From a virus (Duplodnaviria; Heunggongvirae; Uroviricota; Caudoviricetes), in IMG/VR virus record IMGVR_UViG_2713896900_000005, positions 1-6,925 of that record: a DNA stretch of 6,925 nt. The stretch is one strand, 5' to 3'. The notes beneath the pieces are model-generated. The model was not told where the DNA came from. It made no database searches and saw only the letters and a list, made by a program, of their open reading frames with translations. This document shows, piece after piece, positions 122 through 6,925 of this stretch. Within the stretch, counting starts at the first letter, position 1; every line of letters begins with the position of its first letter. Both the position numbers and the translations under genes were made by a program.

Positions 122-3100
122 TCAACGGATACTGATGCCGGAAGCCGCTTTTTTGGTCACAATCACCGTACAGTCGGTGATATTGCCTGCCCCCTGATTC
201 CCTTTCTGGAAAATCTTAAACTCCAGAGTGACGCTTCCCCTGCCACCCAGCATATCAATAACCGCACTGTAACTACCGGGAATGGCCCCTTTAGTTTCTC
301 TGGATGCGATTAATACGCCGTTTTTGCGAACTTCAAAACCATAACCCGTGTATCGCGTGCCTCCGGGGTTATTTCCGCTCCCCGGATCGGTATACGCTAT
401 ACCGTTAAAAATAATGGGCGGAATAATAATCTGACGGTCAAAGTTATGATCATCGCTGATGGTGACTGTAACCGTCCCGTCTGGCGTTTCCGTGTTACCC
501 CACGTACCGACTTTTTTCGGGAAGGCTTTTGATACAGCTTTAACGAAATCCCCTCTGACCTGGGTCGCCTCCAGCATGCCCTTAATCGTACAGTTCTCAC
601 TTATCGTGACATTGTTGAGCGTCCCGGAGTTCGCATTCACGTTACCGCTGATATCAGCGTTTTTCGCCGTCAGCCGCCCGTCCGGTGTCAGGGAAAATGC
701 CGGAGGATTGCCGCCGCTGGTGATGGTCGGGGCCGTCAGACGCTTCAGGAACACGTCGTTCATGAATATCTGATCGCTCTGACCAACAAACATTGGTCGT
801 GTGTTGCCATTAGACGGATCAATAAACGCAATACGGTTAGCGGCGACAAGAAACTGGCTCAGCTTGCCTTCCTCCGTGTCCTCCATACTGAGGCCAATAC
901 CCGCGACATAATGTTTGCCGTCTTTGGTCTGCTCAATTTTGACGCCCCACATGGCATTCCACTTATCGTTGGCGTCCTGCCACTCTTTCGAAAACTCCTC
1001 CAGTTTGCTGGCGTTATCCTCCGTCAGCTCGACTTTTTCCAGCAACTCCTTGCCGAGATGGGATTCGGTTATCTTTCCTTTGAAAAAATCCAGGTAACCT
1101 TCCGCATCATCGCTCGCCCGACCGACGGCCTCCACGAACACCGATTTGCCAACGGTGTTCACACTGCGGATATAAAAGTAATAATCATGGCCCGGTTTGA
1201 TATTGATACTGGCGGCTATCCAGTACATCCCCGTACCAAGATAGCGGGCTGTGGTTTCAACCTGCCGGATATCGGCAATCCGCTTTTCCGAAAACCAGAA
1301 CTCAAACTGTACCGTCGGGTCATAAACCGCAAGATGCGGCGTGGCGGTTATCTGAAAATAACCCGGCGTCAGCTCAATCTGTGACGGCGCTGCCGGTGCG
1401 GCAATCCTGAACGATACCGACGCCGGGTCACCCTGCTGTCCCCACGCATTTACCGCCCGGACTGTCAGCCTGTAGTTCCCCGGCGCCAGTTGCCTGAAAC
1501 GATATTCGGTTTCCGTCGTCCGGGCCGTGCTGACCAGCCGCTCACTGCCGTCATCCGCTGCCACGGTCAGGCGAAGCATAAAGCTCACGCCCTTCACCAC
1601 CTTCGGCGTGTCCCATCGCGCCAGCACCTGATATTCCCCGCTGTCTGCCGAGACTTCGGCGGTCAGGTGCTGCACTGCTGGCGGCGTGACACCATTCACC
1701 GTGCCGCTCTGGTCGCCGTCAAAGTGCGCCCCGTTATCCACGATGGCCTCTTTTTCCGGTACATGCTGCACGGCGGTGATGGCATACGTGCCGTCGTCGT
1801 TCTCACGGATACTCACGCAGCGGAACAGGCGCTGGCGCAGCGTCGGCAGCTTCAGCCCCCACACGCTGTATTCGGCAACGCCGTCAGGGACCCGACTCAC
1901 TTTCACCTGCACGCCATCGGTGACAGACTGAACCTCCACGCTGACCGGATTGCCGCTTCCGTCAACCAGGCTTATCAGCGTGGTACCGGAGGCTGGCAGC
2001 ATGATTTCACGGTCGAGCGTCAGCGTCCGGGTCTGGCTGTTCACCGCAAGCACGCGCCCGCCGGTGCTGATACCGGCATAGTCATCATCGCAGATTTCAA
2101 TGACATCGCCCGGTACATGGCGAAGCCCTTCTGCGCCCACGCTGAAGTCCACGGTCTGCGTTTCCAGCAGTTCTGTTTTAATCAGCCACAGCCCGGCTCG
2201 GTGTGCCTGCCCCCGGCTGGTACAGCCAAAGGCATCCATCTTCGTGACGTTACGACCGTAACGGGCAATGGCCTGCGTGTCCTCCACAAGCTCTGTTGCC
2301 GTCTCCCAGCCGTTGTCCGGGTCAATCCAGTTCACCTCAACGGCATTATGGCGGTCCTTCAGGGCGCTGAAGCTGTAGCGGAACGGCGCGCCATCATCCG
2401 GCATCACCACATTACTGCGGTTATAGGTCCACACCTTATCCGATGGCCGGTCCTGCACGAACGTCAGCGTCTGCCCGTTCCATACCGGCATACAGCGCAT
2501 CGCCGAGCAGAAATCACTGAGCACATCCCACGCCCGGCGCTGCGTGGTCAGGTACGCATTACAGGTGATGCGCGGCTCCGTGCCACCAGAGCCATCCGGT
2601 ACCGACTGGTCGCAGTACCGACCGATGGCATACAACGCCCATTTATCCACATCCGCTGCACCAAGACGTTTCCCCATGCCGTAGCGCGGGTGGGTCAGCA
2701 TGTCCCACAGACACCAGGCCATGTTGTCGCTGTACGCTGGCTTGAACGTTCCGTCCCAGATACCGCTGTATTGCCTCGTCTGCGGGTTATAGTTCGACGG
2801 CACCTGCAGAATGCGCCCGCGAAGATGATAATTACGGCTCACCTGCTGACTGCCGAACTGTTCCGAGTCCACCTGCACGCCGACCAGTGCCGTGTTCGGG
2901 TAGCACTGTTGCACATCGATGATTTCGGTGTATGACGACCAGAGCGTTTTGTTCTGCAGCTGGTCTGTGGTGCTGTCCGGCGTCATCCTGCGCATCCGGA
3001 TATTAAACGGGCGCGGCGGCAGGTTACCCACCACCACCGAGGCCAGATACTGCGAGGTGGTTTTGCCCTTAATGGTGATGTCTTTTTCCGTCACCCAGCC

Positions 3101-3535
3101 ACCATTACGTTGTATCTGAACCAGCAGGCGAACTTCCGACGGATTCCGGTCCCCCTTTGAAGTGGTTTCCACCAGTGCCTGCACACCGAAGGTAAAGCGC
3201 AGACGGTCGATGTTTGCCGATGTGATGGTCCGGGTAATCGGCGTGTCGTACTTCACCTCCGTACCCAGCACCGTCTCGGAGCCGGAGGATTCAAATCCCT
3301 CCGGCGGTGTCTGCTCCTGCTCACCTGCCCGGAACACCACCGTGACACCGGAGATATTGGTATTCCCCTCACTGTCCAGCACTGGCGTACTGTTCAGCAG
3401 CACACTTTTCAATCCATCCACCGGACCTTCAATCGGCCCTTCACTGATGGCATCGAGCACACTCAGCAACTGCGTGGATTTCAGGTTGTCCTTCGCTTCG
3501 CGCGGGGTATGCCCCTTACTGCCACCTTTACCCAT
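122..3535 (-). CDS. J: Phage tail tip host-specificity protein J (central tail fiber), 1137 aa
   Basis: Single 3414-nt ORF. The translation is recognisably collinear with lambda gpJ over most of its length (N-terminus [24 protein letters not shown]..., internal motifs such as [39 protein letters not shown] and [15 protein letters not shown]). Length is close to lambda J (1132 aa as I recall). It sits after H-M-L-K-I as in lambda. The last ~150 residues look diverged (see findings). Confidence 0.95.
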
Positions 3536-3668
3536 AGATAATTCCCGAAACAGTAATCAATTTTATGCGAACCATATAACGACCGCTTGCAACAAAAATG
3601 CATCTGTTGTATTTCATTTGTTAAAACTTAAATCACCTTGATTAACAACACGAAATGACGGGGTATTT
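3536..3668 (+). promoter_or_regulatory. AT-rich intergenic region upstream of sodC; probable site of the sodC promoter and RBS (also holds the J translation initiation region on the minus strand)
   Basis: A 133-bp AT-rich non-coding spacer between the divergent starts of J (minus, ATG at 3535) and sodC (plus, ATG at 3669). A weak purine/G-rich stretch (gacgggg, 3657-3663) lies 5 nt upstream of the sodC ATG. Possible -35-like hexamers (TTGCAA 3587-3592, TTGTTA 3618-3623) have no convincing -10 partner at 16-18 bp, so no specific promoter is called. Confidence 0.3.
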
Positions 3669-4190
3669 ATGATAAAAAAAATACTTGCTGTAACTGCGCT
3701 ACTTAGTGGAGCCGTAATGGCTGATACAATGACGATCCCTGTAAATCTCGTTTCCTCAGAAGGAGTAGGGGAAAATCTAGGGGAAATAACTATTTCAGAA
3801 ACCAGCTACGGATTGCTGTTCACTCCTCATCTGAAAGAACTGCCACCAGGGTTACATGGCTTTCATATCCATGAAAATGCCAGTTGTAATCCCGGTCTGA
3901 TTAATGGAAAAAAAGTGCCAGCTCTTGCTGCCGGTGGGCATTATGATCCTGAACAAACAAATAAACATCTTGGGCCGTACAATCCGGAGGGCCATCTGGG
4001 TGATCTACCAGCACTCTATGTCAACTCAGAAGGAAATGCAGAAAACCCGGTTCTGAGTCCAAAAATAAAAAAAATAAGCCAGATAAAAGAACGGGCGATC
4101 ATGATTCATGCCGGAGGGGATAATCATTCCGATTCACCTGCTCCTCTGGGGGGTGGTGGCGCAAGACTGGCATGCGGAATAATTAAATAA
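3669..4190 (+). CDS. sodC: Periplasmic copper/zinc superoxide dismutase, 173 aa, phage moron
   Basis: The translation has an N-terminal signal peptide (MIKKILAVTALLSGAVMA, predicted cleavage before DTM) and the hallmark bacterial Cu,Zn-SOD motifs: metal-ligand histidines in GFHIHE, GGHYDP, HLGDLP, IHAGGDNHSD, and the C-terminal GGGGARLACGII with the disulfide cysteine. It matches E. coli chromosomal SodC in length (173 aa) and motif order but not in sequence identity. The gene is on the opposite strand to all flanking tail genes and is visibly more AT-rich (about 38% GC in the first 60 nt by hand count, against about 58% in a J sample). Confidence 0.93.
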   Translation: MIKKILAVTALLSGAVMADTMTIPVNLVSSEGVGENLGEITISETSYGLLFTPHLKELPPGLHGFHIHENASCNPGLINGKKVPALAAGGHYDPEQTNKHLGPYNPEGHLGDLPALYVNSEGNAENPVLSPKIKKISQIKERAIMIHAGGDNHSDSPAPLGGGGARLACGIIK

Positions 4191-4205
4191 CAAACAGCCT
4201 AAAGC

Positions 4206-4231
4206 AATCACCGTCATAGCTGGCGGTGATT
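4206..4231. terminator. Candidate weak hairpin between convergent sodC and I
   Basis: Inverted repeat AATCACCG (4206-4213) / CGGTGATT (4224-4231) with a 10-nt loop. It lies 16 nt after the sodC stop (4188-4190) and directly abuts the I stop codon (4233-4235, minus strand). There is no clean U-tract on either strand, so if functional it is at best a weak or leaky terminator. Confidence 0.3.
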
Positions 4232-4232
4232 A

Positions 4233-4874
4233 TCAGCGACCAATAACCACAACCTGACCACCATCCCCCTCGTCTGCCGTGCTGATCTCCTGAGAGACCA
4301 CACGTGACCCCACGCGCATTTCACCGTACAGAACAGGCAGAACATTGCCCTGGGCAACCATGTTGTCCAGTGACGAGAAATACGTGTTCTGCTTACCGTT
4401 ATTCGTTGTCTGTGTTCGGGGAGTTTTGGGTCTGGGGGCCAGCATCTGTGCCACACCGCCAAGCGTCATACTGGCACCGAGAGAAAACAGCAGATTACTT
4501 GCCATAATTCCCACCCCAGGCATCCATATAGCAACCGCCATAACAGCTGCGCCCAGCACGGCCTGAAACACGCCGCCACTTTTGGCTCCCGCCAGGCGCG
4601 GCACAATATGGATCACGGCACCATTTGCCAGCGGTTCATTAAGACGGGCTGATAATTCAGTTTCACCTGTATCACGCCCGGCAATGCGTACCTGATACCA
4701 GCCGTCGCTCAGTTTCTGACGAAACGCCGGGAGCTGTGTGGCCAGTGCCCGGATGGCTTCAGCCCCCGTTTTCACACGAAGGTCGATGCGGCGGCCAAAT
4801 CGTTGTAAATCCCCGTAAAGGCAGATGCGTGCCATGCCCGGTGACGCCAGAGGGAGTGTGTGCGTCGCTGCCAT
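4233..4874 (-). CDS. I: Phage tail tip assembly protein I, 213 aa
   Basis: ORF immediately downstream of K and overlapping it by 103 nt in a different frame, which is the K/I overlap length I recall for lambda. It contains a hydrophobic, glycine-rich segment (VFQAVLGAAVMAVAIWMPGVGIMASNLLFSLGASMTLGGVAQMLA) typical of gpI-family proteins. It is about 10 residues shorter than lambda gpI as I recall it (223 aa). Confidence 0.88.
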   Translation of the reverse strand: MAATHTLPLASPGMARICLYGDLQRFGRRIDLRVKTGAEAIRALATQLPAFRQKLSDGWYQVRIAGRDTGETELSARLNEPLANGAVIHIVPRLAGAKSGGVFQAVLGAAVMAVAIWMPGVGIMASNLLFSLGASMTLGGVAQMLAPRPKTPRTQTTNNGKQNTYFSSLDNMVAQGNVLPVLYGEMRVGSRVVSQEISTADEGDGGQVVVIGR

Positions 4875-5515
4875 TTGTCGGTATACCTCTCTCGTTTGCT
4901 CAGTTGTTCAGGAATATGGTGCAGCAGCTCGCCGTCACCACAGTAAATGGCGGCATGATTCGGCACCGATGAACCAAAACAGCACAGCAGCACATCACCC
5001 GGTTGTGCTGATGACAACGGCACCTGATACAGCCCTGTGGCCTCCAGATTATCCAGATAGAGATTCTGGCCGTTACGCCACCAGTCATCCTCACGATGAA
5101 AATCCGGCATCTCAATCCCCGCCAGATGATAAGCATCCCGGAACAGCGTGTAACAATCTGTCACCCCGTGCTCAAAGTGCCGCCCGGTGAGATGCGGCAC
5201 ACAGCGGAATTTATGAATCTCACCCCGGCAGACCAGCCACCACGGCAAATCACTCTGCACCTGCATCCGCCGGTCGGCCTCACTCAGCCAGGGCAGACCA
5301 CCGGGGTGGCTGTGGACCAGCGCCACAATCTCACCCTGCATCTCTGCCTGCAGCCAGTCTTCCGGCGACATACGGAAATACGCCTCCGGCTCACCGGAGA
5401 TATTCACGCAGGGGAAATATCTTTCCCCCTCCGGCGTGCTTACCACGAAGCCGCACGACTCCGCTGGCGCACATCGCCGGGCGTGCGCCAGAATCGCTGA
5501 TTCTGTCTCTGTCAT
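4772..5515 (-). CDS. K: Phage tail tip assembly protein K, 247 aa as the longest ORF, with an N-terminal JAMM/MPN metalloprotease-like domain and a C-terminal NlpC/P60 cysteine-peptidase-like domain
   Basis: JAMM motif read directly from the translation: E19 in AESCGF (E-x-x-G), then H68-S-H70-x7-S78-x2-D81 (HSHPGGLPWLSEAD). NlpC/P60-like catalytic candidates: C121 (GVTDCYTLF), H187 (VPNHAAIY), H199/H200. Position after L and overlapping I matches lambda. The classical 199-aa lambda K would correspond to initiation at internal Met49 (ATG at 5369-5371), which has a GGAGG 11 nt upstream; the long ORF starts 5 nt after the L stop. Confidence 0.9.
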   Translation of the reverse strand: MTETESAILAHARRCAPAESCGFVVSTPEGERYFPCVNISGEPEAYFRMSPEDWLQAEMQGEIVALVHSHPGGLPWLSEADRRMQVQSDLPWWLVCRGEIHKFRCVPHLTGRHFEHGVTDCYTLFRDAYHLAGIEMPDFHREDDWWRNGQNLYLDNLEATGLYQVPLSSAQPGDVLLCCFGSSVPNHAAIYCGDGELLHHIPEQLSKRERYTDKWQRRTHSLWRHRAWHASAFTGIYNDLAAASTFV

Positions 5516-5520
5516 GGGAT

Positions 5521-6219
5521 TTACTGCGAAAGTTTGTTAATGGAAAGGAAGCCGCCAAAGTTGCCGACGTTATTGCGAAACTTACAGCCACTCAGGCATT
5601 TGCTGCATTTATCCTTCGTGATATCGGACGTTGGCTGGTCATATTCATCCGCGACCGCCGGACCGTGATAACCGCACTCATCGCCGCGATAGGTCCAGGT
5701 GCAGGTGTTGGCCAGCATGATACGTCCCGGAAAAACAGCGCCATCCGTTTCCGTCGGCGTGGACAGTACAAAGGAGGCACTCACCGCGCTCAGTTCGCTG
5801 CACTGCTCGATGCGCCAGCGGCTGATCACCTCCTGCTCCGGGTCTGCCTCGATGTTTCCGTTGACGAAGTTCACCGCATCCAGAAAACGGGCGTAAACCT
5901 TACGCCGGACCACCGTTCCGCCGACCAGACTCTGCATATCTTCCACCATGCCGGTGACCATACCGTACAGGTTAGAAACCGTCAGCGTGGGGCGCGTACT
6001 GGTGCCTTTGCCATTCAGTTCAAAACCACTCCCCTGAATGGGATACGGCTGATACTGTCGCCCCTGCCAGGTGACCGGCTCACCTTTTTCGTTCTGCTCA
6101 TTGCAGAAAAAATAACGTTCTCCACCGACCTCTGTCAGGTCGATTTCCCAGAGCACCACGCTGGCCGACTGCTCCGCACGGGTGCATTCATTCAGTGTTT
6201 CCTGCCGGATATCCTGCAT
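5521..6219 (-). CDS. L: Phage minor tail protein L, 232 aa
   Basis: Exactly the length of lambda gpL (232 aa). Its start codon overlaps the M stop (TGATG on the minus strand at 6217-6221). There is a C-terminal cysteine cluster (C173, C182, C205, C208, C212; CTWTYRGDECGYHG...CSKCLSGCKF) consistent with the iron-sulfur cluster reported for gpL. Confidence 0.93.
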   Translation of the reverse strand: MQDIRQETLNECTRAEQSASVVLWEIDLTEVGGERYFFCNEQNEKGEPVTWQGRQYQPYPIQGSGFELNGKGTSTRPTLTVSNLYGMVTGMVEDMQSLVGGTVVRRKVYARFLDAVNFVNGNIEADPEQEVISRWRIEQCSELSAVSASFVLSTPTETDGAVFPGRIMLANTCTWTYRGDECGYHGPAVADEYDQPTSDITKDKCSKCLSGCKFRNNVGNFGGFLSINKLSQ

Positions 6220-6548
6220 CAGTTCACCACCTGTTCAAACTCTGCGCTGAACTCAACACGCAGCATACTGACCCGCGACGACCATTTTGCGCAGGTCACC
6301 TTTATCTGTCGCCACTCATAAGGCGGCGTCCACAGAAAGGCTTTCCAGCCCCCGTGCTCAGCCAGAAACGACTCCAGTACCGTGGCCTCCTCACGGGGGA
6401 CAGAAAGCGTCACGCTGTACGTTTTCAGGTTGGCATTCAGCCCGGCAGGCGCTCGCTGGGAATAGCCATCACCAAAGCGCACCTTTCTTACAGAAGGGAC
6501 CGAAGCCACATCCATACCGGGTTTCACTTTCCAGCGGAAGGTTTTCAT
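6219..6548 (-). CDS. M: Phage minor tail protein M, 109 aa
   Basis: Exactly the length of lambda gpM (109 aa). Its start overlaps the H stop (ATGA on the minus strand at 6545-6548). Position between H and L as in lambda. Confidence 0.9.
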   Translation of the reverse strand: MKTFRWKVKPGMDVASVPSVRKVRFGDGYSQRAPAGLNANLKTYSVTLSVPREEATVLESFLAEHGGWKAFLWTPPYEWRQIKVTCAKWSSRVSMLRVEFSAEFEQVVN

Positions 6549-6925
6549 CGCCCACCTCCGGAGAACAGACCACCATCGCGCATCTGCCCGGTCACAACAT
6601 CCATTGCTGCCTTACGGGCTACGTCATAAACAGCCTTCAGCGCCTGTGGCCCTATCTGCCCGTTCGTGCCGTCGTTCTGAATCACCACGTGATTGTTCTG
6701 ATTAAAATTAATGCCTTCCGCCCGCCGCATCTGCGCCGGACTTCCGGCACCGCCCACATAACCACCTTCCGCATAGCCCCGCATCAGGCGGTACAGGTTG
6801 CTGACACCAATCCGGCTGGTTGCCTCCTTCGTGAAGACAAACTCCCCGCGGTGGACAATCCCCGCTGGCTCATATTTGCCACCGGTTCCCGTAAATCCCC
6901 CGGTCGCGAAATGGAAGTTCGCCGC
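6545..6925 (-). CDS. H: Phage tail tape measure protein H, C-terminal 126 codons (partial; 5' end lies beyond the right edge of the window)
   Basis: I translated the minus strand by hand from the window edge in the frame that ends at the stop at 6545-6547; it is open throughout: AANFHFATGGFTGTGGKYEPAGIVHRGEFVFTKEATSRIGVSNLYRLMRGYAEGGYVGGAGSPAQMRRAEGINFNQNNHVVIQNDGTNGQIGPQALKAVYDVARKAAMDVVTGQMRDGGLFSGGGR. This resembles the C-terminus of lambda gpH as I recall it. The supplied ORF track shows only 6545-6784 because it starts at an internal Met. Confidence 0.85.
   Translation of the reverse strand, partial: AANFHFATGGFTGTGGKYEPAGIVHRGEFVFTKEATSRIGVSNLYRLMRGYAEGGYVGGAGSPAQMRRAEGINFNQNNHVVIQNDGTNGQIGPQALKAVYDVARKAAMDVVTGQMRDGGLFSGGGR

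Follow-up and report, generated by a model that had tools for sequence, protein, structure and literature searches.

The window analyzed here, a 6,925-nt stretch from a tailed-phage record (IMG/VR IMGVR_UViG_2713896900_000005), carries the end of a lambda-like tail operon in which a gene for a Cu,Zn superoxide dismutase, sodC, lies in reverse between tail genes I and J. Judged by its composition and junctions, the sodC cassette is a horizontally acquired low-GC moron in the I-J slot of an E. albertii lambda-like prophage, and protein comparison places the window as a diverged further member of the set of phage sodC morons already known. We consider it likely that this moron is expressed in the lysogen and that, after induction, late transcription of the Q type reads through it into J. 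The anatomy of the locus, its exact boundaries, the hairpin at its end, the lack of any good promoter, and the repeated occurrence of the arrangement in other phages are demonstrated below.

Organization of the cassette and its flanking genes

Open reading frames and Pfam matches confirmed the gene order given in a preliminary description of this DNA, namely J, antisense sodC, and then I-K-L-M-H (Table 1), and its head-on geometry of sodC transcription and the late operon is correct from the gene strands. The domains found in J are FNIII-A_GpJ, Phage-tail_3, Ig_J, Ig_J_second, Phage_Tail_Tip, and Ig_GpJ_C; the full-length homologue of H in locus L008 matches TMP_2 and Tape_meas_lam_C. Databases place the start of I at 4835, giving a protein of 200 aa.

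Table 1. Features of the window, with positions counted from its first nucleotide
Feature	Position	Strand	Remarks
J, tail tip/host-specificity gene	122-3535	-	1137 aa, intact; ORF and six J-specific Pfam domains
sodC moron cassette	3536-4231	+	696 bp, 42.5% GC; homology breakpoints against insert-less phages
AT-rich spacer, J start codon to sodC start codon (divergent)	3536-3668	.	133 bp, 33% GC
J Shine-Dalgarno-like GGGAA	3542-3546	-	6 nt 5' of J start codon; read from sequence
sodC, periplasmic Cu,Zn superoxide dismutase precursor	3669-4190	+	173 aa; Sod_Cu, NCBIfam SodC equivalog
Stem-loop at cassette 3' end	4206-4231	+	15 nt past sodC stop; 1 nt from I stop codon
I, tail assembly gene	4233-4874	-	Pfam Lambda_tail_I; 213 aa from first ATG
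K, tail gene	4772-5515	-	Pfam Prok-JAB and NLPC_P60
L, tail gene	5521-6219	-	Pfam Phage_tail_L
M, tail gene	6219-6548	-	Pfam Phage_min_tail
H, tape-measure gene, 3' end (C-terminus)	6545-6925 (window end)	-	Full-length homologue in L008

Homology to insert-less phages (L005 and L006) reaches as far as the J start codon, breaks off there, and is found again from 4232, a single base ahead of the I stop codon; the cassette exactly substitutes for the 60-bp spacer that separates I from J in lambda-like phages without an insert. Up to its start codon, the 5' end of J shares 96 to 97% identity with the J genes of E. coli lambda-like phages that lack the insert, and I is 92 to 93% identical from 4232 onward; both genes are intact at the junctions, with the J start and the I stop preserved. 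Two marks of a moron are thereby present. The cassette adds a gene that close relatives lack (696 bp against 60 bp, between I and J genes 93 to 97% identical), and its base composition deviates from the 57% GC of J and I-H, most strongly in the spacer that had already been described as AT-rich.

Three chromosomes of E. albertii and several draft contigs carry an identical cassette, the strain of CP117620 having an intact copy, and the spacer has zero SNPs among 17 cassette copies. Megablast and blastn searches, run against 50,697 phage records and against 5,426 complete genomes of E. coli, returned no copy (0 of 5,426 in the latter), only the I/J flanks or distant sodC genes with 65 to 69% nucleotide identity. 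At its J end the cassette supplies a Shine-Dalgarno-like sequence, which should make translation of J independent of I; in the same place, the O157-type and Fels-1 cassettes carry GAGAGGAA and GAGGGAA, respectively.

The product of sodC is, by its profile matches, an intact equivalog of the periplasmic Cu,Zn superoxide dismutase (Pfam Sod_Cu, 1.8e-32 and 113 bits against a cut-off of 28.9; NCBIfam equivalog NF007628, 212.5 bits against a cut-off of 165). The nearest phage protein is SodCIII of Fels-1 (66% amino acid identity), and identity is 60% to SodCI of Gifsy-2 and 55% to the O157-type SodC-F. Residues H63, H66, H68, H91, H100, H109, D112, H147, C73, and C169 are invariant in an alignment of the window protein with SodCI, SodCIII, SodC-F, and SodC of E. 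coli SMS-3-5; from what is known of the family, we take the His and Asp residues to be metal ligands and the Cys residues to form the disulfide. The N-terminus (MIKKILAVTALLSGAVMA) resembles a Sec signal peptide by eye. Searched against species-representative genomes, the protein matched only chromosomal sodC genes (Pseudomonas, Yersinia, and others) at no more than 65% identity and outside any tail-gene context.

The hairpin at the 3' end of the cassette

The stem-loop behind sodC, already noted in the preliminary description, exceeds chance on both strands. Its arms, AATCACCGTCA and TGGCGGTGATT, form 11 pairs around a 4-nt loop; the folding energy is -15.5 kcal/mol as plus-strand RNA (z -5.7) and -12.7 kcal/mol as minus-strand RNA (z -4.7), and 0 of 200 shuffles were as good on either strand. 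The plus-strand RNA pairs better because one G.U pair turns into an A.C mismatch on the minus strand. The G+C-rich stem-loop of an intrinsic terminator is thus present, and the immediate U-tract is missing on both strands, as had been remarked before: the stem is followed by ATCAGCGACC on the plus strand and by GCTTTAGGCTG on the minus strand, where the tail (GCTTTAGGCTGTTTG) is a broken T-rich tract only. Terminator scores, computed with the formula of d'Aubenton Carafa et al. (1990) and with modern energy parameters, and usable for the relative ranking of hairpins only, are below threshold in both directions (d of -22 on the plus strand and -32 on the minus strand). A terminator scan did not report the site.

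A stem-loop stands immediately 3' of the sodC stop in every phage sodC cassette lineage, and the one in the window is probably a 3' element of the sodC mRNA, either a weak terminator or a stabiliser. As a candidate for the moron's own terminator, it is a strong stem-loop close behind the stop codon and without a U-tract. The 15 copies that cover the hairpin carry no SNPs in it, and none of the 17 cassette copies shows compensatory changes, so covariation is uninformative; an Rfam scan of 3300-4500 gave one sub-threshold chance match only. Within IMG/VR the hairpin occurs only in copies of this cassette, and a role as a mobile-element end or recombination site was dropped. A late-sense terminator-like site within sodC (3934 to 3918, plus T7) is attributable to chance (-7.3 kcal/mol, z -0.2).

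Antisense sodC in other phages

The preliminary description implied that this arrangement is special, but this is the usual position and orientation in which phage sodC genes recur. The gene is antisense to the tail genes in all 76 IMG/VR phage contigs that have recognisable tail genes, 50 times in the I-J slot and 26 times in the L/lom-M slot. Three I-J cassette lineages can be told apart, and they share no spacer homology except for the J ribosome-binding site.

The closest known counterpart is sodCIII of Fels-1 (STM0924, Salmonella Typhimurium LT2), which likewise occupies the I-J slot of a lambda-like tail operon in antisense orientation; a stem-loop follows directly on its stop codon and abuts the I stop codon. 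Between sodCIII and J, Fels-1 still has the native I-J hairpin of the lambda type, while the cassette of the window took the place of the entire spacer. The 3' hairpin of Fels-1 carries a short U-run (GTTTTAT), unlike that of the window, and the promoter spacer of Fels-1 has no detectable homology to ours. A sodCIII::neo construct of Fels-1 gives infectious transducing phage (PMC3920066). The sodC-F1/F2 genes of E. coli O157:H7 CP-933R/V and the sodC of Stx2a-converting phages (e.g., LC567829) share slot, orientation, and a 133-bp spacer with the window. They differ in a 190-bp 3' spacer with two hairpins, against a minimal 42 nt in the window, one of the two having a proper plus-strand U-tract (d of +9.8), and in the lipobox-like signal peptide reported for SodC-F. 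Expression of O157 sodC-F from the prophage state has been shown (PMC2569942).

Gifsy-2 sodCI is also antisense within the tail operon, but in a slot between the lom homologue/M and L, and the hairpin it shares is, unlike that of the window, a canonical late-sense terminator. Lysogens express it strongly, with the Gifsy-2 lytic genes silent, and antisense placement has been termed characteristic of morons (PMC7067206). The bor gene of lambda offers a further parallel, being an accessory, lysogen-expressed gene antisense within the Q-dependent late unit, which late transcription must traverse before all head and tail genes; it differs in its location between Rz and cos and in its unrelated product, a serum-resistance lipoprotein. 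P22 immI, or "ant moron," resembles the window cassette in its place, directly before the gene of a receptor-binding protein (the tailspike) with which the late operon ends. Its contents are the regulatory genes mnt, arc, ant, and sar rather than a gene for a host-fitness enzyme, and P22 is a podovirus with another gene order.

Promoters within and around the cassette

No consensus sigma-70 promoter was found on either strand of 3300-4500 (0 against 1.6 expected), and no site there reached 9/12 consensus matches. The absence of an obvious promoter for J, asserted before, is borne out by these scans. On the minus strand, position weight matrices (PWM) gave weak sites only, 4 against about 3.5 per strand expected by chance. 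One candidate, TTAACA-N18-CATTTT (3624 to 3595), scores 5.9 against a window maximum of 9.6 and is the site, at chance level, that the search of the J-proximal spacer suggested earlier turned up with these insensitive scans; another, TTGCTT-N17-AATTAT (4207 to 4179), scores 6.1. The moron's own promoter is no easier to recognize, as there is no sigma-70 match 5' of sodC, only a weak TTGCAA-N17-TATTTC at 3587-3615 that was read by eye. Because the same scans also miss the sodC promoter, the negative result for the minus strand is weak evidence. From the layout of the locus, the AT-rich spacer must hold the putative sodC promoter together with the ribosome-binding sites of both sodC and J. The promoter of O157 sodC-F lies within 299 bp upstream of the gene and is RpoS-independent (PMC2569942), in a spacer that is not homologous to that of the window.

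A promoter for J within the cassette, located in the 133-bp spacer or inside antisense sodC, would split the tail operon and make read-through of sodC unnecessary. Divergent promoters are common in AT-rich spacers, and an insensitive scan could have missed one, with the two weak minus-strand sites as candidates. The number of such sites is nonetheless that of chance, and no conserved J promoter is evident, the spacers of the three I-J lineages having only the J ribosome-binding site in common. A constitutive promoter would, moreover, make tail protein in the lysogen, and J is required stoichiometrically with the late tail proteins. We regard a separate J promoter as very unlikely.

Probable late transcription to J

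In insert-less relatives, J lies 60 bp downstream of I and belongs to one operon. Since J lacks a recognisable promoter, relatives are operonic, and phages with the same layout are infectious (Fels-1), read-through of the hairpin and of about 700 nt of antisense sodC is well supported by inference as the most economical route to J expression. To this extent the preliminary description stands in having late transcription cross both to reach J. Its explanation, that a leaky terminator without a U-tract permits the crossing, is not supported, given the barriers found in related late operons. The native I-J spacer hairpin of lambda ranks as a late-sense terminator (d of about +19), Gifsy-2-type cassettes carry the canonical late-sense terminator GCCCTC...GAGGGC plus T6 (d of about +20), and L049-type cassettes carry a bidirectional terminator. 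As these operons pass stronger barriers than that of the window, the comparison points to antitermination, not leakiness, as what accounts for the read-through. According to the Roberts laboratory, lambda Q reportedly makes RNA polymerase terminator-resistant across the whole late operon.

The genes around the cassette have the collinear, co-oriented order of a lambda-type late operon. Loci L008 and L009 carry C, D, E, FI, FII, Z, U, V, G, T, H, M, L, K, I, and J on one strand, and in the E. albertii chromosomes the complete collinear lambda-type head and tail set ends with K, I, [sodC], J, and a tail fibre gene on a single strand. In a related contig, whose D protein is 98% identical and whose sodC is of the O157 type, the genes R, Rz, Nu1, and A lie upstream in the same orientation. 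Lambdoid prophages of E. albertii have been reported to carry Q genes (PMC10673567), a report that is not specific to the prophage of the window.

The hairpin and the long untranslated antisense stretch could also act as a partial barrier, an attenuator that lets less late transcription reach J and thereby sets how much receptor-binding protein is made; such a role has been proposed for the P22 ant moron ahead of the tailspike gene. The minus-strand hairpin does fold well and is followed by its broken T-rich tail, the stretch of about 700 nt has stops in all three frames and could expose the transcript to Rho, and fewer copies of J are needed in the lambda tail than of the major tail proteins encoded upstream. 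However, the late-sense score of the window hairpin lies below threshold and, in relative ranking, below that of the native lambda I-J hairpin, which suggests that the cassette took away a stronger barrier rather than adding one. A ribosome terminating at the adjacent I stop codon should mask the hairpin, the late-sense cassette RNA is not C-rich (C/G of about 1), and Q-modified polymerase is resistant to both kinds of terminator. An attenuator is therefore unlikely in our view, its published precedent being the P22 moron, which is thought to influence how often polymerases from the late promoter reach the tailspike gene (PMC2629481).

Another reading takes the prophage as a decaying remnant in which J is neither expressed nor needed, with the cassette kept for the benefit of sodC to the host and no read-through at all. 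In attaching-effacing pathogens, many of the lambdoid prophages that carry effectors are defective. Among the copies of this prophage, an IS66 element interrupts J in one (L007) and the tape-measure gene H is split in another (L009), and variants of sodC or of the prophage with frameshifts may exist; because some copies decay in this way, J expression need not be under selection in every host. Yet in the window and in L008 the tail genes from H (3' end in the window) through M, L, K, and I to J are intact and collinear, as is the head-tail set as a whole, the cassette junctions leave the start codon of J and the stop codon of I exactly preserved, the cassette supplies J with a ribosome-binding site, and Fels-1, with the same layout, is infectious. 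We judge the remnant reading quite improbable. Lysates of LT2 induced for Fels-1 contained mostly empty heads and gave few plaques (PMC3920066), which is compatible with impaired expression of tail genes and not proof of it.

Proposed course of transcription

For this prophage, we infer the transcripts from the sequence as follows. In the lysogen, sodC would be transcribed rightward from a non-consensus promoter inside the AT-rich spacer, and its mRNA would end at the hairpin or shortly past it. Without a U-tract, termination at the hairpin would probably be inefficient, and Rho would probably finish it within the C-rich sequence antisense to I. Upon induction, terminator-resistant (Q-type antiterminated) late transcription would arrive from far upstream, running leftward through H-M-L-K-I, and would next traverse the hairpin, the untranslated antisense sodC, and the spacer before entering J, which would be translated from the ribosome-binding site contributed by the cassette. 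Since only 1 nt separates the I stop codon from the base of the hairpin, a ribosome terminating on I would mask the upstream arm on the late mRNA and so weaken the hairpin still more in the late direction. The strong head-on late transcription would simultaneously silence sodC.

Orientation of the moron and wider significance

The 76 of 76 contigs, two slots, and at least six sequence classes could also be taken to mean that the invariable antisense orientation is selected and not inherited, that the U-less hairpin is deliberately leaky in the direction of sodC transcription, and that sodC serves as a device of antisense immunity or insulation. Transcripts of sodC in the lysogen would then continue into antisense I and K as a long antisense RNA, comparable to STnc6030 of BTP1, and this RNA would block the tail genes of spontaneously derepressed phages or of superinfecting lambda-like phages, whose I is 92 to 93% identical; head-on late transcription would turn sodC off upon induction. 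We hold this extended reading to be highly improbable. If the orientation is truly selected, it would bear on how prophages prevent interference between genes of host benefit and lytic genes.

Beyond annotation, the significance of the present case is small. It adds an E. albertii lineage, with 66% identity to the nearest phage relative, junctions of its own, and a minimal 3' spacer, to the known lambdoid sodC morons of Gifsy-2, Fels-1, and the O157 prophages. Late operons of this kind, the I-J region of lambda included, appear to traverse antisense genes and terminator-like hairpins routinely, so such genes and hairpins should not be taken as operon boundaries in prophage annotation.

Gene content and comparison with other sodC phages

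The window carries an ordinary sodC moron (an accessory phage gene) in a standard slot and orientation, and its cassette, comprising sodC, a spacer, and a 3′ hairpin, is a diverged Escherichia albertii lineage of an already known type. This overall assessment is decided by comparison with other phages, in which the layout is familiar. The earlier observation is confirmed and its interpretation supported in part. The open reading frame listing and Pfam matches reproduced the preliminary map of J, sodC, and the I-K-L-M-H genes.

Coordinates and strands of the window genes and of the native I-J spacer with its hairpin in lambda (L097), an insert-less lambda-like relative (L005), and the Fels-1 locus (L002)
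Feature	Position	Strand	Evidence
J	122-3535	-	ORF listing + Pfam
sodC	3669-4190	+	ORF listing + Pfam
I	4233-4874	-	ORF listing + Pfam
K	4772-5515	-	ORF listing + Pfam
L	5521-6219	-	ORF listing + Pfam
M	6219-6548	-	ORF listing + Pfam
H (tape-measure gene), 3′ end	from 6545	-	ORF listing + Pfam
Native 60-bp I-J spacer, with hairpin	L097 746-805 (lambda 15445-15504); L005 1737-1795; L002 about 4755-4780	late sense	scores as intrinsic terminator

We examined 80 phage SodC loci in IMG/VR, of which 76 had recognizable tail genes, and sodC was antisense to them in all 76 (50 in the I-J slot and 26 in the L/lom-M slot), a descriptive count without a test, in which loci are not counted as independent insertions. 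Fels-1 carries sodCIII antisense between I and J as in the window, and the Stx2a-converting and O157-type phages share this layout; sodCI of Gifsy-2 is also antisense but lies between the lom homologue/M and L. Antisense placement has been named as characteristic of morons, and sodCI is one of the few Gifsy-2 genes with high expression in lysogens (PMC7067206). O157 sodC-F has an RpoS-independent promoter located no more than 299 bp upstream (PMC2569942). Other accessory genes also sit within the late unit: lambda bor is antisense between Rz and cos, and a related O157-type prophage has a PerC-family transcriptional activator gene in the sense orientation between Rz and Nu1 (L194, 3258-3572).

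The window is contig BBVK01000042.1 of assembly GCA_001514685.1. The same SodC protein is encoded by 16 contigs, mostly with an identical cassette, including the complete chromosomes CP117556, CP117620, and CP030781, the last of which appears in a list of E. albertii genomes (PMC10673567). These chromosomes hold a whole lambda-type head and tail gene set on a single strand, followed by tail-fibre and type III effector genes. Three E. albertii copies (L007 to L009, 1-4600) encode type III effector-like proteins (NleG, a SopA-like pentapeptide protein, and a peptidase M85 protein) downstream of the tail-fibre genes, which makes the prophage an effector-carrying lambdoid phage of the sort typical of attaching-effacing pathogens. 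Decay of the prophage is plausible for some copies, given that in L007 the 3′ end of J carries an IS66-family element (4173-6589 and 6616-9867) and in L009 the tape-measure gene H is broken into two open reading frames (12877-15450), but not for the window or L008, where all genes are intact.

Boundaries and origin of the cassette

The I and J flanks are 92 to 97% identical to many insert-less E. coli lambda-like phages and prophages. In pairwise comparison, homology extends to the start codon of J (3535), is lost, and returns at 4232, a single base ahead of the I stop codon, so that 3536-4231 (696 bp) substitutes precisely for the 60-bp I-J spacer. The GC content is 42.5% in the cassette and 33% in its 133-bp promoter spacer, against 57% in the tail genes. 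For J, the cassette supplies a Shine-Dalgarno-like GGGAA at 3546-3542, separated from the start codon by 6 nt, and similar purine runs occupy the same place in other cassette lineages. Among 17 copies, no SNPs fall in the spacer (3536-3668) but up to 10 in the 5′ end of J beside it (3452-3519); mosaic recombination in J, not constraint on the spacer, is the probable reason. The cassette was absent from 5,426 complete E. coli genomes and 50,697 phage records in nucleotide searches, and no publication on the E. albertii cassette came up in a literature search.

The window SodC scores above the NCBIfam equivalog cutoff and keeps, in alignment, all residues invariant across SodCI, SodCIII, and SodC-F. 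Its identity is 65% to chromosomal Pseudomonas SodC and 66% to Fels-1 SodCIII, the nearest phage SodC, and this near-equal closeness leaves the cassette donor ambiguous; phage sodC genes may not be monophyletic. An A8 homopolymer (3672-3679) lies within sodC codons 2 to 4 (ATG ATA AAA AAA ATA). In two IMG/VR copies (L020 and L021) the run is A7, a length that would put sodC out of frame; the cause is on/off slippage or else a sequencing error in the homopolymer.

The hairpin downstream of sodC

The hairpin at 4206-4231 has a stem of 11 pairs and a 4-nt loop, with folding energies of -15.5 kcal/mol (z, -5.7) for plus-strand RNA and -12.7 kcal/mol (z, -4.7) for minus-strand RNA, equaled by 0 of 200 shuffles on either strand. 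The weaker minus-strand fold arises because one G.U pair becomes an A.C mismatch, which slightly favors the plus-strand RNA as the relevant form. As the preliminary description stated, there is no strong U-tract: the plus strand lacks one and the minus strand has only an interrupted one, so the hairpin is probably a poor terminator. The terminator prediction proposed there points the same way, as the terminator scan did not report 4206-4231 and its d'Aubenton-Carafa-type scores (d, -22 and -32) fall below threshold on both strands, all d values serving to rank hairpins only. A P22-like attenuator is possible, the P22 moron that immediately precedes the tailspike gene being thought to affect the number of late-promoter polymerases arriving there (PMC2629481), but these scores speak against it. 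A 3′ stem-loop on the sodC mRNA is the best explanation for the hairpin. Its sequence occurs in IMG/VR exclusively within this cassette and is invariant among copies.

A stem-loop directly follows the sodC stop codon in every cassette lineage, with differing directionality: a proper plus-strand terminator in the O157 type (d, +9.8), a T6-tailed hairpin in the late (minus-strand) sense in the Gifsy-2 type (d, +20), and a bidirectional terminator in another cassette type (L049 and L050). Just past the window hairpin, plus-strand positions 4232-4311 are C-rich and G-poor (34 C versus 13 G in 80 nt; rut-like), which from composition would suit Rho-dependent termination of sodC read-through RNA. 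The segment is antisense to the glycine-rich I C terminus, and the C-richness is therefore also present in insert-less phages.

Late transcription of J

Anatomy and comparison give good support to the preliminary proposal that late transcription would reach J by passing the hairpin and sodC in antisense. Fels-1 of LT2 with sodCIII::neo was released as infectious transducing phage, so J is produced despite a still larger insert in the I-J slot (PMC3920066). A J-proximal promoter is very unlikely. The minus-strand search suggested earlier gave chance-level matches only: the consensus scan of 3300-4500 found no promoter on either strand (1.6 expected), and the position weight matrix scan of 3500-4300 found four minus-strand sites above the 99.9th percentile of the window, about the chance number, the best being 4207 to 4179 (score, 6.1) and 3624 to 3595 (5.9) against a window maximum of 9.6. 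Since the matrix scan likewise gave no convincing plus-strand candidate upstream of sodC, the method is insensitive and its negative result for J is weak evidence.

The accompanying suggestion, that the missing U-tract permits read-through, is unsupported, because lambda and related late operons cross better late-sense terminators. The native I-J spacer of lambda and of the insert-less relatives contains a late-sense terminator-like hairpin, CCGCCTGCGGGCGG followed by TTTTGTCATTT (d, +19). Crossing of this kind is known behavior of Q-modified polymerase, which is terminator resistant. The native hairpin persists between sodCIII and J in Fels-1 but was deleted by the window cassette; if anything, the cassette took away a stronger late-sense hairpin than it brought. 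In the late mRNA, 1 nt separates the stop codon of I from the base of the hairpin, and a ribosome terminating there would therefore cover the upstream arm. The cassette part of the late transcript is about 700 nt long, has stops in all frames, and is not C-rich. An alternative late-sense hairpin (4250-4226, minus strand; -9.0 kcal/mol; z, -1.95) extends across the stop codon of I and the upstream arm of the main hairpin (4231-4206), with which it would compete, although the signal is marginal.
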